Positions 3,985-54,533 of a stretch of DNA of 64,000 bases are shown one piece after another (positions within the stretch are counted from its first letter, which is position 1; the number at the start of each line of letters is the position of its first letter). The stretch comes from Escherichia coli O127:H6 str. E2348/69. GTDB taxonomy: Bacteria > Pseudomonadota > Gammaproteobacteria > Enterobacterales > Enterobacteriaceae. Made by a program: the position numbers and the translations under genes. The notes under the pieces are model-generated. The model did no database searches. It was given only the letters and a program-made list of their open reading frames with translations, and was not told where the DNA came from. The stretch is taken from the NCBI RefSeq assembly GCF_000026545.1, contig NC_011601.1; one strand, written 5' to 3'.

Positions 3985-5625
3985 ATGGCAATCCACAATC
4001 GTGCAGGCCAACCTGCACAACAGAGTGATTTGATTAACGTCGCCCAACTGACGGCGCAATATTATGTACTGAAACCAGAAGCAGGGAATGCGGAGCACGC
4101 GGTGAAATTCGGTACTTCCGGTCACCGTGGCAGTGCAGCGCGCCACAGCTTTAACGAGCCGCACATTCTGGCGATCGCTCAGGCAATTGCTGAAGAACGT
4201 GCGAAAAACGGCATCACTGGCCCTTGCTATGTGGGTAAAGATACTCACGCCCTGTCCGAGCCTGCGTTCATTTCCGTACTGGAAGTGCTGGCAGCGAACG
4301 GTGTTGATGTCATTGTGCAGGAAAACAATGGCTTCACTCCGACACCTGCCATTTCCAATGCCATTCTGGTTCACAATAAAAAAGGTGGCCCGCTGGCAGA
4401 CGGTATCGTGATTACACCGTCTCATAACCCGCCGGAAGATGGTGGTATCAAGTACAATCCGCCAAATGGTGGCCCGGCTGATACCAACGTCACTAAAGTG
4501 GTGGAAGACAAGGCCAACGCACTGATGGCTGATGGCCTGAAAGGCGTGAAGCGTATCTCCCTCGACGAAGCGATGGCATCCGGTCATGTGAAAGAGCAGG
4601 ATCTGGTGCAGCCGTTCGTGGAAGGGCTGGCCGATATCGTTGATATGGCAGCGATTCAGAAAGCGGGCCTGACGCTGGGTGTCGATCCGCTGGGCGGTTC
4701 TGGTATCGAATACTGGAAGCGTATTGGCGAGTATTACAACCTCAACCTGACCATCGTTAACGATCAGGTCGATCAAACCTTCCGCTTTATGCACCTAGAT
4801 AAAGACGGTGCGATCCGTATGGACTGCTCCTCCGAGTGTGCGATGGCGGGCCTGCTGGCACTGCGTGATAAGTTCGATCTGGCGTTTGCTAACGACCCGG
4901 ATTATGACCGTCACGGTATCGTCACTCCGGCAGGTTTGATGAATCCGAACCACTACCTGGCGGTGGCGATCAACTACCTGTTCCAGCATCGTCCGCAGTG
5001 GGGCAAAGATGTTGCTGTCGGTAAAACGCTGGTTTCATCTGCGATGATCGACCGTGTGGTCAATGATTTGGGCCGTAAGCTGGTAGAAGTACCGGTAGGT
5101 TTCAAATGGTTTGTTGATGGTTTGTTCGATGGCAGCTTCGGCTTTGGCGGCGAAGAGAGTGCAGGCGCTTCCTTCCTGCGTTTCGACGGCACGCCGTGGT
5201 CCACCGATAAAGACGGCATCATTATGTGTCTGCTGGCGGCGGAAATCACCGCTGTCACCGGTAAGAACCCGCAGGAACACTATAACGAACTGGCAAAACG
5301 CTTTGGTGCGCCGAGCTATAACCGTTTGCAGGCAGCAGCGACTTCCGCACAAAAAGCGGCGTTGTCTAAGCTGTCTCCGGAAATGGTGAGCGCCAGCACC
5401 CTGGCAGGTGACCCGATCACCGCGCGTCTGACGGTGGCACCGGGTAATGGCGCTTCTATCGGCGGTCTGAAAGTGATGACTGACAACGGCTGGTTCGCCG
5501 CGCGTCCGTCAGGCACGGAAGACGCATATAAGATCTACTGCGAAAGCTTCCTTGGTGAAGAACATCGCAAGCAGATTGAGAAAGAAGCGGTTGAGATTGT
5601 TAGCGAAGTTCTGAAAAACGCGTAA
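3985..5625 (+). CDS. pgm: Phosphoglucomutase
   Basis: 546 aa from [11 protein letters not shown]…; contains the TPSHNP phosphoserine loop; seqA-pgm operon arrangement. Confidence 0.95.
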
Positions 5626-5640: not shown

Positions 5641-5672
5641 AAAAGGGCGGTCGGAAGATCGCCCTTTTTTGC
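5641..5672. terminator. Intrinsic terminator between convergent pgm and potE
   Basis: gggcggtcggaagatcgccc hairpin followed by TTTTTT. Confidence 0.7.
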
Positions 5673-5681
5673 TTTGCTTAA

Positions 5682-7001
5682 TTAACCGTGTTTATTTTTC
5701 AGTTCAAAGCGTGGTGAGACCAGACCATACAGTGTCCAACCGAGGAAGGTCACGATGGAACCGTATAGCATGGCTTCTTCCCCGGATGAGTACAGCGCAT
5801 AAAAGCTGTACATCGCGCCAACAAAAGCAACAAAGTTTGCAACTTTCGCTTTTGAGGGGGGCACATTAGCGACCTTCTGAATAATGACTAATGCCGCCAT
5901 TGACAGAATATACGGAATGATATTGGTCACCACGGCCAGGTTAACCAGCACGTTGAACTGACTGTTTAGCGACGGGCTAATCGTCATCAGCGCCAACCCG
6001 CTCTGGATAATCACAATGGTCAACATTCCCTGCACCGGTGCATCCACTTTGGTTACACGGGAGAAAATTTTAGGGAAGTAGCCTTCATCAGATGAAGATT
6101 TAAACACCTGGGCAATGGTGAACTGCCAGCCAAGCAGCGAACCGCAGCAGGACATCACCATCAGCGCCATAATGACTTTACCCACTTCCGGCGTGAACAT
6201 CTGCGCGAAGGCCAGACCAAATGGTGCCGTTGAATTTGCCAGCTCCATATTTGGCACAATCCCGGCAATCACGTTGGTGGAGACGATATAAATCACCGCC
6301 GCACCTAACGTACCGCCGAGTACCGCGATTGGCACATTACGTTCCGGGTTTTCCACTACATCAGTATTCGCACACGCAGACTCCAGACCAAGAAAAGCCC
6401 ACAGCGTCATAGCGATGGAAGAACCTACCGCACTGAAGAAGGGTGCATGATGCGGATTCCAGGAATCAACGTAAAGCGTCGGGCTAAACCAGAACCAGCC
6501 GATAATGCACAGGCCTACCACCGGAATAATGACCCCCCACACGGTAATGCTACTGATTTGCCCGGTAATGCGCGCACCACCAAAGTTAGCCACGGTACAA
6601 ATCCACAGCACCCCGATGGTCGCAAGACCAATCTGCACTGGCGACAAACTCGCGCCGAGCAGTTCGGTGCCGTAACCAACCGCCGAAATAGCAATCGCGA
6701 CGTTAGCAATCAGCAGCGAGACGCCGTAGGTATAGTTCGCCATAAAGTTACCGGATTTACCGAAAGCATACTCGGCATAACCGCCCATACCTCCTGATTT
6801 ACGGCTGAACATACCGCATTTTGCGAATGCCCATGCCAGTGCCATTGAGCCTACGGCTGTCACCAACCAGGAGATTATTGAGATTGTCCCAACTTCGGCA
6901 AGCTTTGTCGGCAGCATGATGATGCCGGAGCCCATCATGTTGACCATCGTCAGTATGGTTAACTGAACGACGCCCATCTTGTTCGATTTAGCCTGACTCA
7001 T
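5682..7001 (-). CDS. potE: Putrescine-ornithine antiporter
   Basis: 439-aa polytopic APC-family transporter; speF-potE operon synteny. Confidence 0.93.
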   Translation of the reverse strand: MSQAKSNKMGVVQLTILTMVNMMGSGIIMLPTKLAEVGTISIISWLVTAVGSMALAWAFAKCGMFSRKSGGMGGYAEYAFGKSGNFMANYTYGVSLLIANVAIAISAVGYGTELLGASLSPVQIGLATIGVLWICTVANFGGARITGQISSITVWGVIIPVVGLCIIGWFWFSPTLYVDSWNPHHAPFFSAVGSSIAMTLWAFLGLESACANTDVVENPERNVPIAVLGGTLGAAVIYIVSTNVIAGIVPNMELANSTAPFGLAFAQMFTPEVGKVIMALMVMSCCGSLLGWQFTIAQVFKSSSDEGYFPKIFSRVTKVDAPVQGMLTIVIIQSGLALMTISPSLNSQFNVLVNLAVVTNIIPYILSMAALVIIQKVANVPPSKAKVANFVAFVGAMYSFYALYSSGEEAMLYGSIVTFLGWTLYGLVSPRFELKNKHG

Positions 7002-9196
7002 AATTTTTCCCCTTTCAGCAGGGTGCTTTGCGCATCACGAGGCTTGATGACATAGCACCAAACTTGCTTACGACCATCATGTTCTTCGATATAGACACCC
7101 TGCAGCTCCGGTGCAAAACCTGGCAGCAGGTTGATGCCTTCTTCCAGAGCGCTGAAGTAACGCAGAACAGCACCACCCCAGATTTCACCAGGAACAACAC
7201 ACAGCACACCCGGAGGATAAGGAAGCGCACCTTCGGCAGCGATACGGCCTTCTGCATCCGGCAGACGAACCAGCTCCACTTCACCGCGTAAGTAGGCGTA
7301 GTTGGCTTCTTGCGGATTCATGCTGACGCGTGGGAAGTGTTCCTTACGGAACATCTCTTTTTGCAGTTGTTTCACGTTGTGGCGGGCATACAAATCATGC
7401 ATTTCCTGGCACAACTGACGAAGGGTATAACCGGCGTAGCGCTCTTCATGCTGTTTGTAGATGGAAGGCAGTACTTCTGATAATGGCGCGTCGGACTCAA
7501 GCAGTTTTTCGAAGCGTACCAGCAGAGCAGCAAGTTGCTGAAGTTTGGCCATATCTTCTGCCGGAGTCAGCAGAAAGAGGATGGAGTTAAGATCGCATTT
7601 TTCCGGCACTACGCCATTTTCGCGCAGGAAGTTAGTAAGAATCGTCGCGGGTACACCGAACGCTTCATATTCGCCGTTACGTGCATCAATACCTGGGGTT
7701 GTCAGCAACAGTTTGCACGGATCGACAAAGTATTGATTCTCTGCATAGCCTTCAAAAGAATGCCAGTGCTCACCTGGTACAAACTGGAAGAAGCGCAGAT
7801 CAACCGCAATTTGCGCTGTTTCATACGACTGCCAGGGTTTACCATCCACCAGTTCAGGTACGAATGGACGAATATGCTGACAGTTATCGAGGATCAGTTT
7901 GCGGGCATTAATGCCATTTACCACACAATCCATCCACATATTACGACCGCTGACACCTTCATGCATTTTGGCGTTGATATCCAGTGCGGCAAACAGCGGA
8001 TAGAACGGGCTGGTGGAGGCATGCATCATAAAGGCGTTGTTCATGCGTTTGTGCGATACATAACGCTGTTGCCCTTTGATATGGCTGTCTTTTTTATGGA
8101 TTTGTGAAGTCTGGGAAAAACCAGCCTGCTGTTTATGCACAGATTGCGTAACCAGAATACCCGGATCGTTCTCATTAAGATCCAGCAACAGTGGTGAACA
8201 GTCCGCCATCATCGGGATAAACTGCTCATAGCCGACCCATGCGGAGTCAAAGAGGATGTAGTCACACAGATGACCAATTTTATCCACCACCTGACGGGCG
8301 TTATAAATCGTACCGTCGTAAGTGCCTAGCTGAATAACGGCGAGGCGGAAAGGACGCGCCTCTTTTGCCCGCTGCGGTGCGACTTCCGCGATCAGTTCAC
8401 GCAGGTAACTTTCTTCAAAACAGTGAGCGTCAATACCACCGATAAAACCATACGGGTTACGTGCGGTTTCCAGATAAACCGGTGTCGCGCCAGCCTGTAG
8501 CAACGCTCCGTGGTGGTTAGATTTGTGGTTATTGCGGTCAAACAGCACCAGATCACCCGGTGTCAGCAGGGCGTTTAAAACCACTTTGTTAGAAGATGAA
8601 GTGCCATTTAGAACGAAGTATGTTTTATCGGCATTAAACACTTTTGCCGCATGTTGCTGTGCAATGCATGGCGCGCCTTCGTGAATCAGCAGATCGCCCA
8701 TTGCCACATCCGCGTTGCACAAGTCAGCACGGAACAGCGCCTCACCAAAGTATTCCACAAACTGATTCCCCGCCGGATGGCGACGGAAAAATTCGCCGCC
8801 CTGATGACCGGGGCAATCAAACGCGCTGTTACCCTGATTGACATAATCGACCAGTGCGCGGAAGAAGGGCGGGCGCAGTTGAGTTTCATAATGGCTGGCT
8901 GCGGTTTCTAACTGACGACCATAAAATTCTCGTCGCGATTCGCAATTCTCAAAGACACCCGAAATACGGGGCAAATACTCTGCGGGTACACGTTCTTGAT
9001 TTTCAGTAGCAATAAATACCGGGATGCCATAACCCGTGGCATCGATTTCATCGAGTTTTCCGCGTGTAACATCGTTGAGCGATAAAACTATTGCCGCCAC
9101 ATCGATATTACTGTTTTCATTAATATCGATACATTTTCGCTGCGTGGTAAAACAGTCCGGGCAAGAATCACTAACCGCAATTTTTAATTTTGACAT
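6998..9196 (-). CDS. speF: Inducible ornithine decarboxylase
   Basis: 732 aa from MSKLKIAVSDSCPDCF…; fold-III PLP decarboxylase; the supplied ORF has an N-terminal extension that was trimmed. Confidence 0.93.
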   Translation of the reverse strand: MSKLKIAVSDSCPDCFTTQRKCIDINENSNIDVAAIVLSLNDVTRGKLDEIDATGYGIPVFIATENQERVPAEYLPRISGVFENCESRREFYGRQLETAASHYETQLRPPFFRALVDYVNQGNSAFDCPGHQGGEFFRRHPAGNQFVEYFGEALFRADLCNADVAMGDLLIHEGAPCIAQQHAAKVFNADKTYFVLNGTSSSNKVVLNALLTPGDLVLFDRNNHKSNHHGALLQAGATPVYLETARNPYGFIGGIDAHCFEESYLRELIAEVAPQRAKEARPFRLAVIQLGTYDGTIYNARQVVDKIGHLCDYILFDSAWVGYEQFIPMMADCSPLLLDLNENDPGILVTQSVHKQQAGFSQTSQIHKKDSHIKGQQRYVSHKRMNNAFMMHASTSPFYPLFAALDINAKMHEGVSGRNMWMDCVVNGINARKLILDNCQHIRPFVPELVDGKPWQSYETAQIAVDLRFFQFVPGEHWHSFEGYAENQYFVDPCKLLLTTPGIDARNGEYEAFGVPATILTNFLRENGVVPEKCDLNSILFLLTPAEDMAKLQQLAALLVRFEKLLESDAPLSEVLPSIYKQHEERYAGYTLRQLCQEMHDLYARHNVKQLQKEMFRKEHFPRVSMNPQEANYAYLRGEVELVRLPDAEGRIAAEGALPYPPGVLCVVPGEIWGGAVLRYFSALEEGINLLPGFAPELQGVYIEEHDGRKQVWCYVIKPRDAQSTLLKGEKL

Positions 9197-9318
9197 TTTC
9201 CAACTCTTTATTTTTGGTAATAGCAGGTCCTCAATTTCTCGAATGAGAAATTGATCGTGCCGGAAAAAAAGCAAAGTTGCCCCGCTGATAAATTAATCAG
9301 AAGTTTGCTTTTTTCAGA

Positions 9319-9576
9319 ATGCAGAAACCCTTATCAGTCTGGTGGCTGATAATACAAGGGTTAACAGAGAATGAGCACTGCGGAATACAGGCATATGCCT
9401 GTAATACAGAGAGTCAGGAAGACCTGTACGCTGAAGTGCCCTTAGTCGGTAGACTAACGGGCATTGAAGAAGTGAAAGTCGAAGCTATTGCGATGAGCAA
9501 ACTTCATAATATGAGTTGTCCGCCTTATATGGGGCATAGTGCGGCTGTTATTTTCCATTTAATTTACCTTTCCTGA
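9319..9576 (+). CDS. Hypothetical 85-aa ORF (possibly the one annotated ybfK in K-12), antisense to speFL
   Basis: ORF-track only; no recognisable motif; overlaps speFL on the opposite strand, so it may be non-coding. Confidence 0.2.
   Translation: MQKPLSVWWLIIQGLTENEHCGIQAYACNTESQEDLYAEVPLVGRLTGIEEVKVEAIAMSKLHNMSCPPYMGHSAAVIFHLIYLS
9454..9558 (-). CDS. speFL: speFL ornithine-sensing leader peptide (34 aa) controlling the speF-potE operon
   Basis: Minus-strand ORF ATGGAAAATAACAGCCGCACTATGCCCCATATAAGGCGG… encodes MENNSRTMPHIRRTTHIMKFAHRNSFDFHFFNAR, upstream of speF. Confidence 0.8.
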   Translation of the reverse strand: MENNSRTMPHIRRTTHIMKFAHRNSFDFHFFNAR

Positions 9577-9791
9577 TGTGAATGAAGGTGAAGGTATTCT
9601 ATCCAGGAAATACGGTTGAACTGTGAAGGTGATCAATAAAAAATGATCAATCTTAATTTATTTAATGATGAGCTTTTTACTCAGTAATATAAAATATTGA
9701 ATTGTTATTTTTGTGTGTTATTTAAGATAAAAAGCCGTATTTATTATTACGGCTTTAATTAATAAAAGGCAGGATGTATTAAAATTAATAT

Positions 9792-10469
9792 TCAAAGCAT
9801 AAACCGATACCCAATACCGGTTTCAGTAATGAAATGGCGGGGGCGGGCGGGATCTTGCTCCAGTTTTTGTCGCAGATGCCCCATATAAATACGCAAATAA
9901 TGACTGTGTTCGACCGCGTTTGGTCCCCACACCTGGTTGAGGAGCTGGCGCTGGGTGAGCACTTTTCCCGCATTATTAAGCAACACTGCCAGCAGGCGGA
10001 ACTCAATCGGGGTGAGATGCACCTCTTCCTCGCCCCGATGGATCACACGAGCTGCTAAATCGACGGTAACATCGGAAAATTTCACCAGCGGATCGGGCGC
10101 GGCGGTGGCGGAGTGGCGACGTAAAGCGACGCGCAGACGGGCCTGCAATTCGCCAATGCCAAACGGCTTACTCAGATAATCATCCGCTCCGGCATCCAGC
10201 GCGGCGATTTTGTCGCTCTCTTCGCTACGTGCGGAAAGCACAATCACCGGCACCGCGCTCCACTGGCGCAGGTCGCGGATAAACTCAATCCCATCACCAT
10301 CGGGCAGGCCGAGATCGAGAATAATCAAATCTGGCTTACGGGTAGCCGCTTCCAGCAAGCCGCGTTGCAGCGTTTCGGCCTCAAAGACGCGCATCCCATC
10401 GCCCTCCAGCGCCGTGCGCAGAAAGCGACGAATAGCCTGTTCATCTTCAACAATCAGAACGTTTGTCAC
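9792..10469 (-). CDS. kdpE: Response regulator KdpE (OmpR family)
   Basis: 225-aa ORF with receiver domain and winged-helix domain; overlaps the kdpD stop. Confidence 0.95.
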   Translation of the reverse strand: MTNVLIVEDEQAIRRFLRTALEGDGMRVFEAETLQRGLLEAATRKPDLIILDLGLPDGDGIEFIRDLRQWSAVPVIVLSARSEESDKIAALDAGADDYLSKPFGIGELQARLRVALRRHSATAAPDPLVKFSDVTVDLAARVIHRGEEEVHLTPIEFRLLAVLLNNAGKVLTQRQLLNQVWGPNAVEHSHYLRIYMGHLRQKLEQDPARPRHFITETGIGYRFML

Positions 10470-13150
10470 ATATCCTCATGAAATTCTTCAAGTTCAGGGG
10501 CTGTTTGCTGGGGAAGTGTAACACGAAAACAGGCACCACCTTCCGGTCGGTTGAATGCGGTAATGGTGCCGCCGTGTACATCCACTATCGCCCGACAAAT
10601 TGCCAACCCAAGCCCTACACCCGGTACCGCCGACTCTTTATTCCCGCGAGCAAACTTATCAAATATCGTCTGCTCCTGGCCTGGTGGAAGACCGGGGCCG
10701 TTATCCCAGACATCCAGTTGTAGATTTTCGCCCTCAACGTGGGCATTGATACCAATTTCGGCCTGCGCCCCCGCATATTTCACCGCGTTCTCCAGCAGGT
10801 TAATCAGCACCCGTTCAAAGAGTGGCCCGTCAACGTGGATTAAGGTCAGCGGCTCTGGCAGAGAAAGATTGATGGGCGACGATAAACCCGGTTCCAGCAT
10901 TTGCAGCGCGCTGCCGACCACTTCTTCCAGCGTTAACCACTCTTTCTTCAAATTAAAGCCGCCGGACTGAATTCGCGCCATATCCAGTAGATTATTCACC
11001 AGTCGGGTGGTGTTCAGCACATGCTGACGAATCTCGCTGGCCTGGCGGGCGTGGGGCGATCCTTCGCTTGCCAGATCGAGCGTTAAGATTTCTGCCTGAC
11101 CGAACAGCACCGTAAGCGGCGTGCGTAAATCATGCGAAAGCGCCGCCAGCAGGGCGTTGCGGATCTGTTCACGTTCGCTTGCCATCCGCGCCTGTTCTTC
11201 GCTGGCGGTCAGTGTCAGTCGCTCAAGGGCATTGGCGACTAACAGCGTAAACGTCTCCAGCAGGCGCTGCTGTTCCGGGATCATCAACTGGCGCAGATTC
11301 CCCGGTTCCACCACCACCAGTCCGTAGGTTTTCTCGCCGCTTTTTAGCGGCAAAATCTGGTACGGTACACCGGGTAACGTGTCGGTGCCCGCGCCCGCAG
11401 GCAGGCCTTTATCAAAACTCCACTGCGCGATGGCATCGTCCCACGGCGTCATTCCTTGCGGATGTGTTAAAGGCTGCAATTTACCGTTGTCATCAGGCAG
11501 CAACACCTGGCTACGGGCATGAAACGTGGAGGCAATAAACTGTTCGCTGGTGGCGGCGATATCCTGCGAACTACGGCCCACAGCCAGAGCTTTGGACATT
11601 TCATATAAGTGCCGTGTGCGTTGTTCGCGGTAACGGGCTACCCGCGCCTGATAACGCACGCCAGCAGTAAGGTTCCCGATCACCAGCCCGACGGTTAACA
11701 TCACCGCGAAGGTCAGCAGATATTGCACATCAGAGACGGCGAGCGTGCCGCGTGGGGCGATAAAAAAGAGATCGAAACTCACCACATTAATGACGGTGGC
11801 AACCACCGAAGGCCAGCGTCCGTAAAATAGTGCCACCACCACGACGCCAAGCAGATACAGCATCACCAGGTTGGCGGCATCAAACGCCATCAGCCACTGC
11901 ATGGCAATTAAGGTGATAACGGCGCATAACGCGGCGGCAACCACGCATCCCTGAATCTGTACCCGCCACTTGTCTTTAAAAGAGCGGCTATCCGGCGCGT
12001 TGTTAATCGTGCGGGCGGGTGGTTCATCAAGCGCGACCAGCACCTGATCGAGATCGGGGGCGATGCGTGCCAGCCGGTCAGCAAATGTTTCCCGACGCCA
12101 CCAGCGGCGCGAAGCCGGGCGACCGAGAATAATCTTGCCGAGATTATGTTCACGGGCATAACGCACTACCGCTTTCTCTTCCGCTGGATCAGAAAGTGTT
12201 GCCGTCTCCGCGCCCAGCTCCTGCGCCAGACGTAAGGCGCTGAGAATTGCCCGACGTTTTTTCTCCGGTAAGCGATGCAGGGCAGGGGTTTCAACATACA
12301 CCGCGTGCCAGACACTGCCCAGGCGCGAGGCCAACCGCGCCGCCGCGCGGACCAGTTTCTCACTGCCGGTGTTATGCCCGATGCATAATAGGATCGCGTC
12401 GCGTGTGTGCCAGACTTTCTCTTCGCCAGGATGCCCCCGCCAGGCGCGCATTTGCTCATCTACGCGATCGGCAGTACGGCGCAGTGCCAGTTCGCGCAGG
12501 GCGATCAGATTGCCTTTGCGAAAAAAATGTTCAATGGCGCGCTCCGCTTGCCCGGCAATATAGACTTTGCCTTCTTTCAGCCGCTGGCGCAGATCGTCCG
12601 GGGGCAAGTCCACCAGTACTACGTCGTCGGCGGCATCAAAAAAAGGATCGGGCACGGTCTCCCGTACCTGAATTCCGGTGACGCCGCTGACCACATCATT
12701 CAGACTTTCCAGATGCTGAACGTTGACGGTAGTGAAAACATCAATGCCAGCTTCCAGCAGCTCTTCGATGTCCTGCCAGCGTTTAGGATGACGTGAACCT
12801 GGCGCATTACTGTGCGCCAGTTCGTCCATTAAGATCAGTGCCGGACGGCGGGCGAGGGCGGCATCGAGATCAAACTCGCTGATGTGCCGCCCACGGTACG
12901 CCTGGCGTTTTAACGGCAGAACAGCCAGACCTTTCAGCATGGCGGCGGTATCTTTCCGACCGTGGGTTTCTACCACGCCAACCACAATATCCAGCCCTTG
13001 CGCCCGCAGTCGCTGGGCTTCCGCCAGCATCGCCCAAGTCTTCCCGACGCCTGCGCAGGCACCGAAGAATACTTTCAGCTTCCCCCGATGCGGCGCGGCA
13101 GCTTGTTCCAGCAGACGATCGGGGTCGGGACGTAAGGGTTCGTTATTCAT
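10466..13150 (-). CDS. kdpD: Sensor histidine kinase KdpD
   Basis: 894 aa from [16 protein letters not shown]…; N-terminal KdpD domain with Walker A (GACAGVGKT), TM segments, HisKA/HATPase domains; start trimmed from the supplied ORF. Confidence 0.95.
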
Positions 13151-13715
13151 CAAGCTTATCCAGTGCCAGATTGAGTTCGACAATGTTGACGACCGGCTGG
13201 CCGATATATTTCACCAGCGGTTGTTGGCTGTATTTTGCGATCAGTTGCGTGAGCTGTTCAACGCTGAGATTACGCGCTTTCGCCACGCGTGGGATCTGCC
13301 AGGCCGCCGCTTGCGGGGTGATGTTATTGTCCAGCCCGCTTGCTGACGCCGTCACCAGTTCAACCGGAACGTTCGTGCTGGCATCCGGGTTAGCAGCCCG
13401 TAATTCAGCAACGCGTGCGGCTATCTGTTTATCCAGCTCCGGGTTACTGACCGCCAGGTTGCTCCCGCCAGAAGCCTGTGGATTATAGGGCATTTCTGCT
13501 GTTGCCGACGGGCGACCATGAAAATAGCCGTTGCCGGTAAAATTTTGCCCGATTAATGCCGAACCGCGCACCGTATCACCTTCACGAATCAATGAACCGT
13601 TGGCCTGCCAGGGAAACCACCATTGCCCCAGTGCGGTGGTCAGCAGCGGGTAAACGCCGCCAGTAATCAATAACAGAAAGAGAAATGTCGATAATGCCGG
13701 ACGTAATCCACGCAT
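13143..13715 (-). CDS. kdpC: K+-transporting ATPase subunit C
   Basis: 190 aa from [11 protein letters not shown]…; kdpFABC operon synteny. Confidence 0.9.
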
Positions 13716-13723
13716 GGTAAACC

Positions 13724-15772
13724 TCACACCAGACCGCAAACGGTTAGCAGTAAATCAATGACTTTGATACCAATAAACGGCACCAGCAGCCCACCCAGAC
13801 CGTAAATCCATAAGTTACGGCGCAACATGGCAGAAGCGGTAAGCGGTTTATAACTCACGCCTTTTAACGCCAGGGGAATCAAAAAGACGATAATCAAGGC
13901 GTTGAAAATGACCGCACTGAGAATGGCGGAGTCGGGCGAATGCAGGCGCATGATGTTCAGCGCATTTAACTGCGGATACGTTGCCGCGAACGCCGCTGGA
14001 ATAATGGCGAAGTATTTCGCCACATCGTTGGCAATGCTGAAGGTGGTCAACGAGCCACGGGTCATCAGCATCTGTTTGCCAATGTGCACTACCTCGATCA
14101 ACTTGGTCGGGTTGGAGTCGAGATCCACCATATTGCCCGCTTCTTTCGCCGCCTGGGTGCCGGAGTTCATCGCCACCGCAACATCGGCCTGTGCCAGCGC
14201 CGGAGCATCGTTGGTGCCATCGCCGGTCATCGCCACTAAACGGCCTTCCGCCTGATACTGACGAATCAGTGCCAGCTTGGCCTCCGGTGTTGCTTCGGCG
14301 AGAAAATCATCGACACCCGCTTCCGCAGCTATCGCGGCGGCAGTCAGGCGGTTATCGCCGGTAATCATCACCGTTTTAATGCCCATTTTACGCAGCTGCG
14401 CGAAGCGCTCTTTAATACCGCCTTTGACGATATCTTTCAGCGCAATAACGCCCAGCACACGAGAACCTTCCACCACCACCAGCGGCGTGGCTCCCTGACG
14501 CGCAACCTGATCGACTTTTTGATCAACATCGGCAGGGAAGTGACCGCCGTTAGCCTCAACATGGCGGCGAATGGCATCGACAGAACCTTTACGGATCATG
14601 CGGTTGTCGATGTTGATCCCGCTCATCCGGCTTTGTGCAGTAAAAGGTACAAAGGTGGCATGGAGCGACTGCACATCGCGCTCGCGCAGGTTAAAACGCT
14701 GCTTGGCGAGGATCACAATACTGCGGCCTTCCGGCGTTTCATCAGCCAGCGAAGCCAGTTGTGCGGCGTCGGCCAGCGCTTTTTCCTCCACGCCTTGTGC
14801 GGGGATAAACTCTGACGCCTGACGGTTACCGAGGGTGATGGTGCCGGTTTTATCCAGCAGCAGAACGTCAACATCACCCGCTGCTTCAACTGCTCGCCCG
14901 CTGGTGGCAATCACATTCGCGCCCAGCATCCGACTCATCCCGGCGACGCCAATCGCTGACAACAGGCCGCCAATAGTGGTTGGGATCAGACAGACCAGCA
15001 GTGCCACCAGTACCGTTACGCTGACTGCATTACCGCCCCACGCGGAAAACGGCCACAGCGTGGCGGTTGCCAGTAAAAAGACGATAGTCAGGGCAATCAG
15101 GAGAATGGTCAGGGCAATCTCGTTCGGCGTTTTACGTCGCTGCGCACCTTCCACCATCGCGATCATCCGATCCAGAAATGTCTCGCCGGGGTTAACGCTG
15201 CACTCAATCACCAGCCAGTCAGAAAGAATACGCGTGCCGCCAGTGACGGAGGCAAAATCACCGCCGGATTCACGGATCACCGGAGCCGATTCCCCGGTGA
15301 TGGCGCTTTCATCGACCGATGCGCCGCCTTCAATGACTTCACCATCGCAGGGGATAATATCGCCAGCTTCTACCAGTACGATATCGCCTTTACGCAGTTG
15401 ATCGGCAGGAACTTTGTCTGCCGCAGCGCCATATTTCGGTTCGCGCAGCTTGCGAGCAAAAGCGGTTTTTTTCACCCCTTTCAGACTGTTGGCCTGCGCT
15501 TTACTGCGGCCTTCTGCCAACGCCTCGGCGAAATTAGCGAACAGTACGGTGACCCACAGCCAGCCGCTAATTGCCGCGCTAAACAGCGCATTGCCAGGCA
15601 TCACACCGCTTGCCATCGCGATGCTAATACAGGTGGTCAGCAGACTGCCGATCCAGACGATAAACATCACCGGATTGCGCCATTGCGCCTGCGGGTTTAA
15701 TTTTTTCACCGCTTCTTTCAGCGCCTGAACGACAAGTGTTGGTTCGAATAGCGCCAGTTGTTTACGACTCAT
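13724..15772 (-). CDS. kdpB: K+-transporting P-type ATPase subunit B
   Basis: 682-aa ORF with P-type ATPase motifs DKTGTIT and [12 protein letters not shown]. Confidence 0.96.
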
Positions 15773-15794
15773 ATTCAGTGCTCACTCAATATCA

Positions 15795-17468
15795 TCAGGA
15801 GAGATATTCCGCCACCGGACCAAGCGCCAGGGCAGGGATAAAGGTCAGTGCGCCAACCAGCAACACGGTGCCGATTAACAGGCCAACAAACAGCGGGCCG
15901 TGCGTTGGCAATGTGCCGGAGCTGGCGGGTTGGCTCTTTTTACTCACCAGCGAACCGGCAATTGCCATCACCGGGATAATCACCCCGAAGCGCCCGACAA
16001 ACATGCACAACGCCAGTAAACAGTTCCAGAATGGAGAGTTGGCGCTTAATCCGGCAAAGGCGCTGCCGTTGTTGTTAGCGGCGGATGACACGGCATACAG
16101 CACTTCGCTAAAACCATGCGGGCCAGGGTTGAGCATGGCGCTACGTCCGGCGTCGGTCATCATTGCCAGCGCCGCGCCCATCAGCACCAGCGTCGGGGTG
16201 ACCAGAATCGCCAGTGCAGTCAGTTTCATCTCGCGTACGTCGATTTTTTTACCCAGATATTCCGGTGTACGACCAATCATCAGCCCGGCAATAAACACCG
16301 CCAGCAGGACAAACAGCATCATGCCGTAAAGGCCTGAACCGACGCCGCCGAATACCACTTCACCAATTTGCATCAACCACATCGGCACCATGCCACCAAG
16401 AGCGGTAAACGAATCATGCATCGCAATCACCGCGCCGCAGGAAGCCGCCGTAGTCACGACCGCAAACAGGCTACTGACCAGCACGCCGAAACGGCTCTCT
16501 TTACCTTCCATATTGATGCTGCTGTCCGCGCCGAGCGCCAGCAGATGAGGATTACCCTGAACTTCTGCCCACATCACTACGCCTACGCAGATGACAAAAA
16601 TCACTGACATCGCCCACAGCAACATGCGCCCCTGGCGACGATCGCCCGCCACTTCACCAAAGGCAAAGCACAGCGCTGTTGGGATCAAGAAGATCGCCAG
16701 CATTTGCACGAAGTTGGTCAGTGCGGTTGGGTTTTCAAACGGATGCGACGAGTTGGCATTAAAAAAGCCACCGCCGTTAGTTCCGAGCATTTTGATCGCT
16801 TCCTGAGAAGCTACTGGCCCCATTGGTAATAGCTGTTGCGCTCCTTCAATGGTCGTCACAGCCTGATAAGGCAAAAAGTTTTGCAGCACACCTTGTTGTA
16901 TAAAAAACAGTGCGATCAGCAATGCTACGGGGGTTAACACCCATAACGTAATCCGCAACAGGTCTACCCACGCATTACCCAGCGTGTTCATGCTCTGGCG
17001 GGTAAACGCGCGAATAAGCGCAAAAATCACCGCAATCCCGCTGGCGGCAGAAAGAAAGTTTTGCACCGTTAAGCCCGCCATCTGGCTGAAATAGCTCAAC
17101 GTGGTTTCACCGCTATAAGATTGCCAGTTGGTATTCGTGACAAAGCTGACGGCGGTATTGAGCGCCAGATCCCACGACAGCCCCGGCAACTGCTGTGGAT
17201 TAAGCGGCAGATAGTGCTGACCGAGCAACATAAAAAACAGCACCGCCAGCCCCAGTATATTCAGGCCAAGAATGGCTGAGAGATACTGCTTCCAGTTCAT
17301 CTCGCGGTCAGAGACGCCAAGCGTGCTAAAGAGTACGCGTTCAACGCCCGTCGTACCAGGAAGAGGTATATCATTAATCAGCCGCGCCAGCCCGCTACCT
17401 AAGGGACGCGCCAGCACCATTAATACCAGTAAAAACGTGGCAATCAGTAAGAACCCTTGCGCAGCCAT
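15795..17468 (-). CDS. kdpA: K+-transporting ATPase subunit A
   Basis: 557 aa from [12 protein letters not shown]…; the supplied ORF has a 48-codon in-frame upstream extension that was trimmed. Confidence 0.93.
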
Positions 17469-17557
17469 CAGAACGCCTCCGCATTGATCAGGGCATAAAC
17501 CAGATAACCCAGTAATAAAAACACCAGCAACACGCCGGTTATCACGCCTGCACTCAC
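17468..17557 (-). CDS. kdpF: KdpF, 29-aa membrane peptide of the Kdp complex (GTG start)
   Basis: GTG-initiated [29 protein letters not shown]; stop overlaps the kdpA ATG. Confidence 0.8.
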
Positions 17558-17621
17558 AGTGCACCTCCAGTGGCCTAAAAGTGATACCGGAAGGGTAGAG
17601 TTCTGGCTGCAAAGATTTCGC

Positions 17622-17660
17622 AAAAATCTGCGGGCGTGGTGTAAAAAAAGTATAAAAATG
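17622..17660 (-). promoter_or_regulatory. KdpE operator / kdpFABC promoter region
   Basis: Minus-strand sequence TTTTTATACTTTTTTTACACCACGCCCGCAG upstream of kdpF matches the T-rich direct-repeat KdpE binding site as I recall it. Confidence 0.55.
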
Positions 17661-17869
17661 GCAAAAGCCATGGTTTAACTAATGTTTAGTATTAATTTAA
17701 CTTTTATGTAACTTAATTACACGGTGAATGTAAATAAACCATCAATAAGCAAAAATAAGTGGTCGGATGAGTAGTAAAATTACACAAACAGCGGTACTAT
17801 TTTCATCAGATAAACGAATTCATTTTTCCGGTGCTATTCACCGGGTAGATACAAAAGGGGGAGAAAAGT

Positions 17870-18076
17870 ATGGAACTCTACAAAGAATATCCTGCATGGC
17901 TTATCTTTTTACGCCGTACTTGTGCGGTTGCAGCGGGCGTTCTGGCGCTGCCTTTCATGCTTTTCTGGAAAGACCGCGCCCGCTTTTATAGCTACCTGCA
18001 CCGCGTCTGGTCGAAAACCAGCGATAAACCGGTGTGGATGGATCAGGCCGAAAAGGCAACCGGTGATTTTTATTGA
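17870..18076 (+). CDS. ybfA: Small membrane protein YbfA (DUF2517)
   Basis: 68-aa [20 protein letters not shown]…; synteny upstream of the kdp promoter. Confidence 0.8.
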
Positions 18077-18099
18077 TTGCTAAACATGACGTTCAAAGA

Positions 18100-18135
18100 A
18101 AACCGCCAGCGGAGACGCTGGCGATTTTCTTTTTT
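18100..18135 (+). terminator. Intrinsic terminator after ybfA
   Basis: ccgccagcg-gagac-gctggcg hairpin followed by ATTTTCTTTTTT. Confidence 0.7.
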
Positions 18136-18176
18136 CGGCGTCTACACTTACTCCTGTAAACCGTTCAGGAGCAGTA

Positions 18177-18686
18177 ATGAATCAACAACTTTTTGATGAC
18201 AGCACCCTTATCCGCATTTTTGCTTTGCATGAGTTACACAATCTCAAAGATCGAGGACTAACGCGCGGGGCGCTTCTCGATTATCACAGCCGCTATAAAC
18301 TCGTCTTTCTGGCGCATTCTCAGCCGGAGTACCGCAAACTTGGCCCGTTTGTGGCTGATATTCACCGGTGGCAAAGTCTGGATGACTATTACAACCAGTA
18401 CCGCCAACGCGTAATTGTTTTGCTTTCTCACCCTGCCAACCGGCGTGATCATACTAACGTTTTGATGCACGTTCAGGGATATTTTCGCCCACATATTGAT
18501 TCCACAGAACGCCAGCAGCTGGCAGCGCTTATCGACAGTTATCGCCGTGGCGAGCAACCGCTTCTTGCGCCGCTGATGCGTATCAAACACTATATGGCGC
18601 TTTATCCTGACGCCTGGCTTTCAGGGCAGCGTTATTTCGAACTTTGGCCGCGTGTGATTAACTTGCGCCATGCAGGAGTTTTATGA
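18177..18686 (+). CDS. ybgA: DUF1722 protein YbgA
   Basis: 169-aa ORF; stop overlaps the phr start (ybgA-phr operon). Confidence 0.85.
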   Translation: MNQQLFDDSTLIRIFALHELHNLKDRGLTRGALLDYHSRYKLVFLAHSQPEYRKLGPFVADIHRWQSLDDYYNQYRQRVIVLLSHPANRRDHTNVLMHVQGYFRPHIDSTERQQLAALIDSYRRGEQPLLAPLMRIKHYMALYPDAWLSGQRYFELWPRVINLRHAGVL

Positions 18687-20101
18687 CTACCCATCTGGTC
18701 TGGTTTCGCCAGGATTTACGTCAGCACGATAATCTCGCGCTGGCTGCCGCCTGCCGCAATTCGTCTGCGCGCGTGCTGGCGTTGTATATCGCTACACCAC
18801 GCCAGTGGGCGGTGCATAATGTGTCGCCGCGTCAGGCTGAACTTATCAATACACAACTTAATGCGCTGCAAAACGCGCTGGCGGAAAAAGGCATTCCTTT
18901 ATTGTTCCGCGAAGTGGATGACTTTGCCGCCAGCGTCGAAATAGTTAAACAGGTGTGCGCGGAAAATCGTGTTACCCATCTGTTTTATAACTATCAGTAT
19001 GAGGTGAATGAGCGGGCGCGGGATGTGCAGGCTGAGAGGGCGCTGCGTAACGTGGTGTGTGAAGGATTTGACGACGGCGTGATCCTGCCGCCGGGGGCGG
19101 TGATGACTGGCAATCATGAGATGTACAAAGTCTTTACGCCATTTAAAAACGCCTGGCTTAAACGGCTGCGAGAAGGGATGCCGGAGTGCGTCGCTGCGCC
19201 AAAAGTACGTAGTAGCGGATCGATAGATCCCGCGCCATCCATTACGCTGAATTATCCTCGTCAGCCTTTCGATACTGCGCATTTCCCGGTGGAAGAGAAA
19301 GCGGCGATTGCGCAATTACGCCAGTTTTGCCAGAACGGTGCCGGAGAGTATGAGCAACAGCGAGATTTCCCTGCGGTAGAAGGCACCAGCCGTTTGTCCG
19401 CCAGCCTGGCAACGGGCGGGTTATCGCCTCGCCAGTGTTTGCATCGCCTGTTGGCGGAACAGCCGCAGGCGCTGGACGGTGGGGCCGGTAGTATCTGGCT
19501 TAATGAGCTGATCTGGCGCGAGTTTTACCGTCATCTGATAACGTATTACCCCTCGCTGTGTAAACATCGTCCGTTTATTGTCTGGACCGACCGCGTGCAG
19601 TGGCAGAGCAATTCCGCGCATTTAAAGGCCTGGCAGGAAGGCAAAACGGGATACCCGATTGTTGATGCTGCCATGCGTCAGCTTAACAGCACCGGCTGGA
19701 TGCATAACCGGCTACGGATGATTACAGCCAGTTTTTTGGTGAAAGATTTATTGATCGACTGGCGCGAAGGTGAGCGATATTTCATGTCGCAGCTGATTGA
19801 TGGTGATTTGGCAGCCAATAACGGTGGCTGGCAGTGGGCCGCTTCAACCGGAACCGATGCAGCGCCGTATTTTCGTATTTTTAACCCGACAACCCAGGGC
19901 GAGAAATTTGACCGTGAGGGCGAGTTTATCCGCCAGTGGCTACCGGAACTGCGCGATGTGCCAGGGAAAGTGGTGCATGAGCCGTGGAAGTGGGCGCAGA
20001 AAGCAGGTGTGACGCTGGATTATCCGCAACCGATAGTTGATCACAAAGAGGCAAGGCTGCGAACGCTGGCAGCGTACGAAGAAGCGAGGAAAGGAGCCTG
20101 A
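18683..20101 (+). CDS. phr: Deoxyribodipyrimidine photolyase
   Basis: 472-aa ORF with photolyase/cryptochrome FAD-binding C-terminal signature (…WREFY…, …GGWQW…). Confidence 0.95.
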   Translation: MTTHLVWFRQDLRQHDNLALAAACRNSSARVLALYIATPRQWAVHNVSPRQAELINTQLNALQNALAEKGIPLLFREVDDFAASVEIVKQVCAENRVTHLFYNYQYEVNERARDVQAERALRNVVCEGFDDGVILPPGAVMTGNHEMYKVFTPFKNAWLKRLREGMPECVAAPKVRSSGSIDPAPSITLNYPRQPFDTAHFPVEEKAAIAQLRQFCQNGAGEYEQQRDFPAVEGTSRLSASLATGGLSPRQCLHRLLAEQPQALDGGAGSIWLNELIWREFYRHLITYYPSLCKHRPFIVWTDRVQWQSNSAHLKAWQEGKTGYPIVDAAMRQLNSTGWMHNRLRMITASFLVKDLLIDWREGERYFMSQLIDGDLAANNGGWQWAASTGTDAAPYFRIFNPTTQGEKFDREGEFIRQWLPELRDVPGKVVHEPWKWAQKAGVTLDYPQPIVDHKEARLRTLAAYEEARKGA

Positions 20102-20142
20102 TAAAACGCAGCGAGCGTTTTATCAGGCATGGTGCTGGCTTA

Positions 20143-21807
<1,665 letters not shown>

Positions 21808-26837: not shown

Positions 26838-27120
26838 TCTTCGCTTCCTCATTATTTTATCTTTGGTGTATCGATACAGCATAAAGAAAGCTGGGTCTGG
26901 AAAAAATAACGGTAATCAAGGAAAAGGGGAAAATCAGCAATAATCTGAATACGTTGCCCTTTCCGGCTGAAAAGGGCGTCGTGTTAAATCAGTTATAGTT
27001 AATCTTAAAAAGTACCACTGTATCGAAGGGACCCACCGCGATGGGAGTGCCAGGTGTGGACGATAATTCAGCCGTATAGATTTTTTCGTAGATCAGCATA
27101 TCACTGGTGAAATCGGCGTA

Positions 27121-27363
27121 TTAAGCATATTTATTGAATGTATAAGGCGAGGCGTTTTCATCCAGTATACGTAGCTTCAGACCATTACCAATCAACAATG
27201 CTTTATCTTCTTCAACCAACGTTTTTTCGGTATAAAACGAGGAGCTGACCTTAAATCCGTCGGTACACTGGTCATTTTGCGATTTTGTTGTCTTGATACT
27301 GAATGTTTTCGACATTGTGTGGCGGCGAATATCCAGTAAGTTAAATTTACCCAAATCAATCAC
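27121..27363 (-). pseudogene. Short ORF in the abrB-gltA gap, possibly a remnant of the ybgOPQD fimbrial operon
   Basis: 80-aa ORF with no signal peptide or usher/chaperone motif; the whole gap is about 630 bp where K-12 (from memory) carries a roughly 5 kb fimbrial operon. Confidence 0.25.
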
Positions 27364-27448
27364 CAGTGTTTCCGGTGAAATATTTTTTCACCATTATTAA
27401 TGGGTATTTGCATCTGGTTTAATTTTTACAATTTTTTATGTTCAGCCA

Positions 27449-27482
27449 TATAAAAAGAACCCGCTCTATTAAAGGCGGGTCC
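27449..27482 (-). terminator. gltA intrinsic terminator
   Basis: Hairpin acccgc…gcgggt followed by a T-run on the minus strand, just downstream of the gltA stop. Confidence 0.6.
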
Positions 27483-27510
27483 GGAAAGTGAACGGCTTAG
27501 CAATCAACCA

Positions 27511-28794
27511 TTAACGCTTGATATCGCTTTTAAAGTCGCGTTTTTCATATCCTGTATACAGCTGACGCGGACGGGCAATCTTCATACCGTCACTGTGCAT
27601 TTCGCTCCAGTGGGCGATCCAGCCAACCGTACGTGCCATAGCGAAGATCACGGTGAACATAGAAGACGGAATACCCATCGCTTTCAGGATGATACCAGAG
27701 TAGAAATCGACGTTCGGGTACAGTTTTTTCTCGATAAAGTACGGGTCGTTCAGCGCGATGTTTTCCAGCTCCATAGCCACTTCCAGCAGGTCATCTTTGG
27801 TGCCCAGCTCTTTCAGCACTTCATGGCAGGTTTCACGCATTACGGTGGCGCGCGGGTCGTAGTTTTTGTACACGCGATGACCGAAGCCCATCAGGCGGAA
27901 AGAATCATTTTTGTCTTTCGCACGACGAACAAATTCCGGAATGTGTTTAACGGAGCTGATTTCTTCCAGCATTTTCAGCGCCGCTTCGTTAGCACCACCG
28001 TGCGCAGGTCCCCACAGTGAAGCAATACCTGCTGCGATACAGGCAAACGGGTTCGCACCCGAAGAGCCAGCGGTACGCACGGTGGAGGTGGAGGCGTTCT
28101 GTTCATGGTCAGCGTGCAGGATCAGAATACGGTCCATAGCACGTTCCAGAATCGGATTAACTTCATACGGTTCGCACGGCGTGGAGAACATCATATTCAG
28201 GAAGTTACCGGCGTAGGAGAGATCGTTGCGCGGGTAAACAAATGGCTGACCAATGGAATACTTGTAACACATCGCGGCCATGGTCGGCATTTTTGACAGC
28301 AGGCGGAACGCGGCAATTTCACGATGACGAGGATTGTTAACATCCAGCGAGTCGTGATAGAACGCTGCCAGCGCGCCGGTAATACCACACATGACTGCCA
28401 TTGGATGCGAGTCGCGACGGAAAGCATGGAACAGACGGGTAATCTGCTCGTGGATCATAGTATGGCGGGTCACCGTAGTTTTAAATTCGTCATACTGTTC
28501 CTGAGTCGGTTTTTCACCATTCAGCAGGATGTAACAAACTTCCAGGTAGTTAGAATCGGTCGCCAGCTGATCGATCGGGAAACCGCGGTGCAGCAAAATA
28601 CCTTCATCACCATCAATAAAAGTAATTTTAGATTCGCAGGATGCGGTTGAAGTGAAGCCTGGGTCAAAGGTGAACACACCTTTTGAACCGAGAGTACGGA
28701 TATCAATAACATCTTGACCCAGCGTGCCTTTCAGCACATCCAGTTCAACAGCTGTGTCCCCGTTGAGGGTGAGTTTTGCTTTTGTATCAGCCAT
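27511..28794 (-). CDS. gltA: Citrate synthase
   Basis: 427-aa [36 protein letters not shown]…. Confidence 0.97.
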
Positions 28795-37097: not shown

Positions 37098-37127
37098 TGT
37101 AGACCGACGTGGATAGGGTGTCGGTCT
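37098..37127 (+). other. Stem-loop in the sucB-sucC intergenic region (possible partial terminator or processing site)
   Basis: Perfect 10-bp inverted repeat gtagaccgac…gtcggtctac with a 10-nt loop. Confidence 0.45.
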
Positions 37128-40531: not shown

Positions 40532-42081
40532 CTGTCTCTTATACACAAATCCCCACCCGGGGATTTGTGATGTCTGTCAGTCTGCTTTAGGGGGACTCTT
40601 TCCATCCGGTAGTTTCCTTCCTCCCCGGCAGCGATTTTTTGAACTTTTTCCTCACCCGTTGATCTTCTCTTATATTTCATTTTCTTCGGGTCTGTTATGG
40701 TACTTTCTGATTGTTATTCATGGGCTAACGAGCAGTTTGGACATGCCCGTCTCGGTGATCCGCGTCGTACACGACGCCTTGTGTCACTGGCCTCTTCTCT
40801 CGCTCAGCATGCAGGTCTTTCTATTGTGAAATCATCCCAGTCCACTGCTCAGGTTGAAGGTGCGTACCGCCTGATACGTAACCCGTCTGTGTCCCCGCAA
40901 GCCATTGCCGAAGCCGGATTTACCGCCACTGTAAGGGCATGTGAGGCTCATCCGCTGCTCCTCGCGCTGGAAGACACCACCACCATTAACTTCAGTCACA
41001 GTACGGCATCTGATGACCTGGGGAATACCACCACTAACCCGAAGACGCGCGGGCTGCTGGCTCACTCTGTCCTGATGTACGCCCCCGACAGCGCCCTGCC
41101 AGTCGGTCTTATCGAACAGCAGCGCTGGAGTCGTGCCACGGACACCTACGGTGTTAAGCACCAGCGAAAAGAACGTCCCTATGAAGAAAAAGAAAGTTAC
41201 CGCTGGCAGCAGGCTTCGGAGCGCATGGCCGAACGGCTGGGGGAGATACAGAAACGGGTAATCACTGTCTGTGACCGGGAAGCGGATATCTGGCATTACC
41301 TGCATTATAAAGTCAGCCACGGGCAGCGCTTCGTGGTGCGTGCAGCACAGAATCGCCGGCTGGAAGAAGCACCCGGCAAGCTCTTCGAACTGCCGGAAGT
41401 CCTGGCAACCGCGGGAAGCCACACGCTGAATGTGATGCAAAAAGGCGGGCGGGCAGCCCGCCAGGCCCGGATGTTCATCAGTTACAGCGAAGTCAGCATA
41501 AAAAATCCCGACAACAGCGGCCAGGCGCTCCCGCTCACGTATGTCTGTTGCCGGGAGCAGGCAGAGGACGGCGCCTGCTGGCATCTGCTGACGTCAGAAA
41601 AAGTGGCGAGTGCCGCCGATGCGCGACGTATCGTCAGCCATTACGAGCGACGCTGGCTGATAGAGGAATACCACAAGGCGTGGAAAAGTGGTGGTACATG
41701 TGTGGAATCGCTGCGAATGCAGACCCGGGATAACCTCGAGCGCATGGTGGTTATCAAGGCGTTTATCGCGGTGCGGGTGCTGGGCCTGCGGCAGGGCGGT
41801 ATCAGTGAAGAAACACAAAATGACAGCTGTGAGAAAATACTGACGCCGACAGAGTGGAAACTGCTGTGGGTTAAGCTGGAAGGAAAACCGCTTCCGTCAC
41901 AGATGCCGACACTGAAATGGGCCTGTCTGAAACTGGCGAAACTGGGGCGATGGCATGACAGCAAACGCACCGGTCGCCCCGGTTGGGTAGTCATGTGGGA
42001 TGGCTGGTTCAGACTTCAGGATATGGTTGAGGGTTACCTGGTGATGAAGTCTCTTGATCAGGAGATCTGATCAAGAGACAG
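40532..42081 (+). mobile_element. IS50-like insertion sequence (IS4 family), about 1.55 kb, with asymmetric OE-like and IE-like termini
   Basis: Left terminus CTGTCTCTTATACACAAAT (IS50 outside-end-like); right terminus on the complementary strand CTGTCTCTTGATCAGATCT (IS50 inside-end-like, two GATC sites); one 457-aa DDE transposase ORF fills the element; the 9 bp flanking the two ends differ (ccaatgaag vs cccgggcga), so there is no target-site duplication. Confidence 0.85.
40697..42070 (+). CDS. IS4-family (IS50/Tn5-like) DDE transposase
   Basis: 457-aa ORF; clear similarity to Tn5 transposase as recalled (LGDPRRT…, …LEDTT…, …VCDREADI…, …RWLIEEYHKAWKSG…), with all three DDE catalytic-residue contexts present. 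Confidence 0.85.
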   Translation: MVLSDCYSWANEQFGHARLGDPRRTRRLVSLASSLAQHAGLSIVKSSQSTAQVEGAYRLIRNPSVSPQAIAEAGFTATVRACEAHPLLLALEDTTTINFSHSTASDDLGNTTTNPKTRGLLAHSVLMYAPDSALPVGLIEQQRWSRATDTYGVKHQRKERPYEEKESYRWQQASERMAERLGEIQKRVITVCDREADIWHYLHYKVSHGQRFVVRAAQNRRLEEAPGKLFELPEVLATAGSHTLNVMQKGGRAARQARMFISYSEVSIKNPDNSGQALPLTYVCCREQAEDGACWHLLTSEKVASAADARRIVSHYERRWLIEEYHKAWKSGGTCVESLRMQTRDNLERMVVIKAFIAVRVLGLRQGGISEETQNDSCEKILTPTEWKLLWVKLEGKPLPSQMPTLKWACLKLAKLGRWHDSKRTGRPGWVVMWDGWFRLQDMVEGYLVMKSLDQEI

Positions 42082-54498: not shown

Positions 54499-54533
54499 CT
54501 AACATAGTTAGTTGTAGTATCCAGCGTAGTATC

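Follow-up and report, generated by a model that had tools for sequence, protein, structure and literature searches.

The ybfA-ybgA spacer of Escherichia coli E2348/69 is probably the uninterrupted ancestral allele of the RhsC site

The genes ybfA and ybgA lie 100 bp apart in Escherichia coli O127:H6 str. E2348/69, at the place where K-12 carries the RhsC element. We propose that this spacer is the ancestral allele of the RhsC site, one that was never interrupted, and not the scar of a deletion, a reading to which we assign a probability of roughly 0.85. The two genes are adjacent, the point at which the island enters in other strains can be placed exactly within the spacer, no remnant of the island is found, the same empty architecture occurs in outgroups, and empty and occupied alleles are both frequent among complete E. 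coli genomes. The sequence analysed is a 64,000-nucleotide stretch of contig NC_011601.1 (assembly GCF_000026545.1), referred to here as the window, and coordinates are window positions unless another source is named.

Results

The spacer extends from the TGA stop codon of ybfA (18074-18076) to the ATG of ybgA and measures exactly 100 bp (18077-18176). No open reading frame in the list compiled for the window lies inside it. It is bordered by kdpB, kdpA and kdpF on the minus strand, by ybfA (the orthologue of K-12 b0699), ybgA and phrB on the plus strand, and then by dtpD (minus) and ybgI (plus). The entire window is 100.000% identical to the finished chromosome NZ_CP059840.2 of E2348/69, an enteropathogenic strain; the RefSeq annotation of that record has ybfA and ybgA side by side and nothing in between. 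The parts of the spacer and its flanking genes are listed in Table 1.

Table 1. Features of the ybfA-ybgA region in the window, with sequences across the insertion point of the RhsC island
Feature	Position	Strand	Description
ybfA	17870..18076	+	68 aa, DUF2517/YbfA family; left flank gene of the site; from ORF list and RefSeq name
Variable short stretch, ybfA stop to terminator	18077..18103	+	window haplotype AAACATGACGTTCAAAG; K-12 GAGTTTTGAATACATTG
Predicted intrinsic (rho-independent) ybfA terminator	18104..18135	+	stem-loop CGCCAGCG-GAGA-CGCTGGCG at 18104-18123; T-run at 18125-18135
RhsC island insertion point, unoccupied (rhs 'position 5')	18128..18139	.	from blastn breakpoints, three-way junction alignment and megablast splits
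Conserved box CGTCTACACTTA	18139..18150	+	directly right of insertion point
ybgA translation-initiation region	18151..18176	+	inverted repeat CTCCTG...CAGGAG (18151-18156, 18166-18171), read from the sequence
ybgA	18177..18686	+	169 aa, DUF1722/YbgA family; right flank; first gene of ybgA-phrB
phrB (photolyase)	18683..20101	+	4-bp overlap with ybgA
Sequence across insertion point, window (empty)			GGCGATTTTCTTTTTTCGGCGTCTACACTTA
Sequence across insertion point, divergent 'E. coli' SCPM-O-B-8794 (empty)			GGCGGTTTTTTTATGTACGCCGTCTAAACTTA
Sequence across insertion point, Citrobacter			GGCGGTTTTTTTATGCACGGACGTCTACACTTA

Immediately after the ybfA stop codon, alignment distinguishes two forms of a short variable stretch. 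The form of the window, AAACATGACGTTCAAAG, is found nearly unchanged in IAI39 and E69 (1 and 3 mismatches over 17 nt), and the K-12 form, GAGTTTTGAATACATTG, occurs exactly in FDAARGOS_944 and O145 and as a close variant in SCPM-O-B-8794. Next comes a hairpin that begins 27 nt past the stop codon, with a stem of 8 pairs, 7 of which are G-C, followed by ATTTTCTTTTTT. A G+C-rich hairpin running directly into a T-run, downstream of the stop and on the same strand, is what is expected of an intrinsic terminator, and in a scan of the plus strand from 17600 to 18300 this hairpin was the sole terminator-like site. RNA spanning 18070-18185 folds at -42.1 kcal/mol, with a z-score of -5.9 against shuffled sequences.

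To the right of the insertion point lies the box CGTCTACACTTA, which alignments place in empty and occupied alleles alike, namely all Escherichia alleles as well as Citrobacter, Enterobacter and Trabulsiella. The TACACT hexamer within it may be the -10 element of a ybgA-phrB promoter, a suggestion made from the sequence. A scan of the spacer for sigma-70 consensus promoters scored none for ybgA, and a literature search on the ybgA-phr promoter returned nothing relevant. The Shine-Dalgarno sequence of ybgA, AGGAG (18167-18171), sits within the right arm of an inverted repeat, the hairpin of which belongs to the minimum-free-energy fold; the outgroups keep the Shine-Dalgarno sequence, but not the repeat. 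Comparison of 17500-18400 with known RNA families gave just sub-threshold chance matches. In function the 100-bp region is an ordinary intergenic spacer: structure and conservation support its predicted role in terminating ybfA, and it also bears the translation start signals of ybgA-phrB.

In the K-12 strain MG1655 (NC_000913.3), ybfA is located at 729134-729340 and ybgA at 739001-739510, and seven features separate them: rhsC, ybfB, the pseudogene ybfO, ybfC, ybfQ, the pseudogene ybfL and ybfD. By blastn, window 5642-18128 corresponds to K-12 716906-729392 and window 18128-20094 to K-12 738952-740918, so that the 9,559 extra bases of K-12 (729393-738951) map to window 18128/18129, right after the first four T's of the terminator. 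Homology of the left flank to K-12 stops at 18128 in the T-run, and unambiguous homology of the right flank resumes with CGTCTACAC at 18139; megablast matches in occupied genomes split at query 829/840, which are these same two window positions. The island begins with GTATCAGGAAG on the left, giving the left breakpoint GGCGGTTTTTT/GTATCAGGAAG (a slash marks the junction here and below), and ends with CACAAATATCATTTCTCAA on the right; GTATCAGGAAG and CACAAATATCA are examples of island-derived bases. Window and K-12 therefore share the chromosomal site, the ybfA terminator and ybgA leader of the window being the exact flanks of the island, and differ in that all 9,559 bp, with rhsC, ybfB, ybfO, ybfC, ybfQ, ybfL and ybfD, are missing from the window. 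The original prediction, that about 100 bp containing the ybfA terminator separate the two genes, was right to the base (18077-18176, with the hairpin at 18104-18123 and its T-run), and its statement that K-12 carries the RhsC element at this position is borne out by the MG1655 annotation and by alignment, which place the element here and not elsewhere in K-12.

The K-12 island, of about 9.6 kb, contains an rhs core gene, an immunity gene, orphan toxin tips and H-repeat transposase genes of the ISAs1 type. Rhs proteins are described in Poole et al. (2011; PMC3150448) and Koskiniemi et al. (2013) as polymorphic toxins associated with type VI secretion (T6SS) that have cognate immunity proteins. 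In O157:H7 the site is occupied by a variant island: besides ybfC, it has genes for an RHS core protein, an NTF2-fold immunity protein and a DUF6258 protein, as well as an ISAs1 pseudogene. In the O157:H7 strain TR01, the 3' flank of ybfA (locus L028, 12163-12230) has the K-12-type stretch and hairpin (...GAAAACCGCCAGCGGAAACGCTGGCGG) swapped for a hairpin AGCCAGCCTCGTATCAGGGGGCTGG, and carries a second copy of GTATCAGG, a motif at the left edge of the island. As a candidate target-site duplication we considered a 5-bp TATCA near both K-12 boundaries and rejected it: it does not bracket the insert, and O157, E1V33 and E. albertii do not share it at their right boundary. The island is thus without a demonstrable target duplication.

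No Rhs or H-repeat remnant is present in the window. When the 1,397-aa K-12 RhsC protein was compared with the whole window by tblastn, the best match covered 14 aa at an E value of 0.16, and the large YD-repeat core reading frame is absent. Corresponding searches of the window gave E values of at least 0.85 for YbfB and YbfC and a best E value of 0.39 for YbfD, the H-repeat/ISAs1-family transposase, and blastn with the full 9,559-bp insert gave E values of at least 0.52.

Outside Escherichia, the genes are arranged as in the window. A scan for YbgA in one genome per species yielded 21 loci; their titles do not include E. fergusonii, Salmonella or E. marmotae, and standard E. coli references are likewise not among them. 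The genes kdpA, ybfA, ybgA and phrB are contiguous, with a spacer of 82-162 bp, in six Citrobacter genomes and in one genome each of Enterobacter and Trabulsiella; in Dickeya, Erwinia, Pragia, Budvicia and Samsonia, a distance of 0.7-2.2 kb separates ybgA from ybfA, which is again upstream. Because the genes are contiguous in the former group and near one another in the latter, adjacency of ybfA and ybgA appears to be the ancestral state of the family. The Citrobacter, Enterobacter and Trabulsiella spacers resemble that of the window in gene order and in the succession of terminator hairpin, T-run, about 8-10 nt, (C)GTCTACACTTA, Shine-Dalgarno sequence and ATG, but differ from it in the sequence of the hairpin and in the region from the box to the Shine-Dalgarno sequence. 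In Citrobacter the start of ybgA appears to lie further upstream, and the distance to the aligned residue is 147-162 bp.

Within Escherichia, all the empty alleles inspected, those of E2348/69, IAI39 (group F), FDAARGOS_944, O145 RM11626-C1, E69 and SCPM-O-B-8794, have a spacer of this ancestral type, 100-101 bp long, with no flanking sequence lost. In the empty junctions that were read base by base, only seven in number, the bases at the junction (CTTTTTTCGG, CTTATCGC, ATGTACGC) match the outgroup spacer and neither K-12 boundary. The original prediction had described the site as unoccupied or cleanly deleted and had proposed inspection of the junction for Rhs core remnants or direct repeats. 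That inspection revealed no remnant and no conserved direct repeats flanking the K-12 insert, and together with the outgroup-like architecture this favours an unoccupied site.

Both states of the site are common in the species. The uninterrupted junction is present in 1,310 of 5,424-5,426 complete E. coli genomes, the K-12-type left junction (ybfA joined to the 5' end of rhs) in 3,675 and the K-12-type right junction (an ISAs1/H-repeat end joined to ybgA) in 3,758. Like K-12, about two thirds of E. coli strains carry the RhsC island; other complete genomes have different arrangements at the site, for example IS1 insertions. The empty alleles include those of strains in groups B2 (E2348/69), F (IAI39), D (042) and in part E, and occupied alleles belong mostly to A/B1/E-type strains. 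Groups B2, F and D are early-branching in E. coli.

The empty alleles fall into two classes by their flanks. About 1,135-1,225 genomes are window-like, among them the B2 and F strains E2348/69 and IAI39, and in about 100-175, including 042 (group D), FDAARGOS_944 and O145 RM11626-C1, the flanks match those of K-12 or O157 at 98% identity although the junction is of the ancestral type. FDAARGOS_944 (locus L026, 6778-6878) and O145 RM11626-C1 (locus L030, 16208-16307) combine an ancestral-type empty junction with flanks that are 97-98% identical to the occupied K-12/O157 haplotype, the likeness in RM11626-C1 being judged from identical YbfA protein and spacer sequences. Such alleles either represent the likely progenitor haplotype, into which the island was inserted, or arose by very local recombination. 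In strain 042 (H105) the ybfA-ybgA region is uninterrupted and, by region-level alignment, 98.1% identical to that of FDAARGOS_944.

This locus is not new to the Rhs literature. In the part of Jackson et al. (2009; PMC2935791) that concerns it, the interval kdpA...phr is designated rhs 'position 5', and Table 1 of that survey gives zero rhs genes for E2348/69, 536, APEC O1, CFT073, UTI89 and SMS-3-5; the window comes from one of these Rhs-free strains. Their survey, in the sections relevant here, scores presence or absence per locus, whereas here junction-level sequence is compared with outgroup spacers. A literature search for ybfA and ybgA together with Rhs found nothing on the junction.

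Four Escherichia lineages other than E. coli (E. albertii, E. whittamii, Escherichia sp. E1V33 and Escherichia sp. MOD1-EC7003) have foreign DNA directly upstream of ybgA and share the right junction ...CACAAAnnTCATTTnnnAn/CGTCTACAC. In these genomes the evidence concerns the right junction, as the contigs end on the ybfA side; those of E. albertii and MOD1-EC7003 stop 123 and 397 bp upstream of ybgA, as is typical of a repeat. The E. whittamii cargo (locus L010, 72-8831) comprises a DUF4123 adaptor, two unassigned reading frames, a C-terminal fragment of VgrG, an N-acetylmuramidase and an intact-looking ISAs1-family transposase, and that of E1V33 an RHS-domain tip and an IS200 transposase. 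These T6SS effector islands resemble the K-12 island in having their right junction beside CGTCTACAC, with an ISAs1/H-repeat-type end abutting ybgA, but their cargo is different from that of K-12, and none of it is in the window. The right junction shared by the four lineages implies either an old island or one that recombination has carried from lineage to lineage.

Divergence of the window from K-12 is uneven. Overall identity by blastn is 97.0%, but it is 92-94% at 18001-21000, and 18001-19000, which contains ybgA, is the most K-12-divergent part of the window at 92.3%. In the 900 bp that begin at the ybgA start, K-12 and E1V33 share 95-96.7% identity, but K-12 and E2348/69 only 90-97%; over ybgI-pxpBCA, the corresponding values are about 92% and 97.5%. 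In a neighbour-joining tree of ybgI-pxpBCA, E. coli forms one group on a well-supported species-level backbone with several 100% nodes, whereas a tree of ybgA with 5' phrB sequence does not recover it as one group, although the conflicting nodes have only 23-28% bootstrap, which makes the result suggestive at most. The pattern in the flanks is compatible with an old presence/absence polymorphism and also with exchange of the island and short flanks by homologous recombination, and it would fit a gain in A/B1/E-type lineages as well as a loss, through allelic replacement, in B2, F and D.

Several other differences from K-12 were seen in the window. At 5642-5670, between pgm and potE, it is without ybfP, ybfG and ybfI (about 1.66 kb, K-12 715243-716905). 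The K-12 ybgOPQD fimbrial operon (about 4.8 kb, 748314-753091) is missing at 26989-27418, between abrB and gltA, where only the remnant of a 'type 1 fimbrial protein' pseudogene is annotated in E2348/69. About 4.5 kb at 40532-45015 has no K-12 match; here mngA is truncated and mngB missing, and in their place are an IS4-like ISEc13 transposase, a 'methylaspartate mutase subunit S' and two hypothetical genes. The tRNA array downstream of cpoB (54500-55300) has 6 tRNA-Lys and 2 tRNA-Val genes, compared with 5 and 2 in K-12. Two short intergenic segments of K-12, one of about 108 bp from between phr and dtpD (missing at 20094-20096) and one of about 196 bp from between sucB and sucC (missing at 37106-37121), probably correspond to putative REP-type repeats. 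Identity to K-12 falls to 91-95% at 16000-21000, 27000-28000, 45000-46000 and 55000-56000, and these four dips adjoin four large indels (the RhsC site, the ybgOPQD site, the mngAB replacement and the tRNA array), which suggests that the haplotypes around presence/absence sites are locally old or imported. The ybfP-ybfG-ybfI difference and the two short intergenic gaps are not accompanied by such a dip.

Discussion

We favour the interpretation that the spacer of E2348/69 was never interrupted because a deletion could have produced it only with base-level precision, and with no repeats to guide it. In occupied strains, the island of about 9.6 kb sits between the terminator T-run and the conserved box, a position that leaves the signals of both flanking genes intact. 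Its distribution probably reflects a single insertion event, followed by spread or loss of the island through homologous recombination in the flanks. The distribution to be explained is one in which outgroups outside Escherichia and the B2, F and D groups of E. coli are empty, four non-coli Escherichia lineages are occupied, and the trees of the flanks are weakly resolved.

An artefact of assembly, in which a repeated Rhs element was collapsed out, is next to negligible as an explanation. Multi-copy Rhs cores and H-repeats do break draft assemblies, as the E. albertii and MOD1-EC7003 contigs that end near ybgA illustrate, but the window is identical to a finished chromosome, 1,309 further complete genomes have the same uninterrupted junction, and the zero count of rhs genes for E2348/69 in Table 1 of Jackson et al. 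(2009; PMC2935791) was obtained independently. Loss of exactly the 9.6-kb island from a K-12-like allele, by excision or by recombination between direct repeats, we consider highly improbable. Rhs elements are known substrates of recA-dependent rearrangements, according to the relevant part of the same survey, and TATCA could be imagined as the repeat involved; however, its imperfect placement and lack of conservation at the right boundary speak against this, the junction bases fit the outgroup spacer and not the K-12 boundaries, no remnant was left behind, and the flanks in the window are the most K-12-divergent of the region, not K-12-like.

A further alternative is that the ancestor of E. 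coli or of group B2 was occupied and that homologous recombination, with crossovers in kdp/ybfA and ybgA/phrB, later brought in an empty allele from another lineage, in which case the DNA now present would itself never have been interrupted although the lineage was once occupied. Several observations agree with such a replacement. The same right junction is seen in E. albertii and three further Escherichia lineages outside E. coli; the flanks are where the window diverges most from K-12; E. coli is non-monophyletic in ybgA and 5' phrB, but monophyletic in ybgI-pxpBCA; and empty alleles occur on both classes of flank haplotype, those of FDAARGOS_944, 042 and O145 being K-12-like. In addition, the portion of Jackson et al. 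(2009; PMC2935791) on this locus reports a complete gene at 'position 5' in E. albertii and concludes that ancestral E. coli carried rhs there, which would make the B2 state a loss. The incongruent nodes, however, have bootstrap values of just 23-28%, and gain of the island accounts equally well or better for a distribution in which B2, F, D and non-Escherichia genomes are empty and the occupied ones mostly of A/B1/E type. Replacement of an occupied allele is unlikely in our estimation, but the sequence alone would look the same in either case, and it is for the DNA allele, more than for the B2 lineage, that we favour a history free of interruption.

One tentative suggestion, which we think somewhat more doubtful than probable, is that the RhsC-site island, instead of being long established and vertically inherited in Escherichia as in the published model, is a cassette that has been moved between Escherichia species by homologous recombination together with a few hundred bases of ybgA flank, the lineages concerned being E. 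coli A/B1/E-type, E1V33, E. albertii and others, and that the empty allele of B2, F and D is the original E. coli state. Should this be true, it would revise the conclusion, as given in the part of Jackson et al. (2009; PMC2935791) that treats 'position 5', that occupation of the site predates E. coli.

The empty RhsC site of E2348/69 is in itself an ordinary and already published strain polymorphism, and absence of the island means just that the strain is without that toxin/immunity set. Strains of E. coli are well known to differ in whether they carry Rhs elements. What is mildly new is the base-level evidence of a scarless empty allele that is collinear with outgroups. This allele supplies the exact pre-insertion sequence of the RhsC site, which shows that insertion of the island disturbed neither the ybfA terminator on one side nor the conserved box upstream of ybgA on the other. 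Together with the right junction shared across species, the base-level evidence leaves the published model of ancestral presence questionable. Since that junction is shared and empty alleles are found on both flank haplotypes, the site may serve as a handy small test case for the exchange of T6SS toxin islands by flanking homologous recombination.
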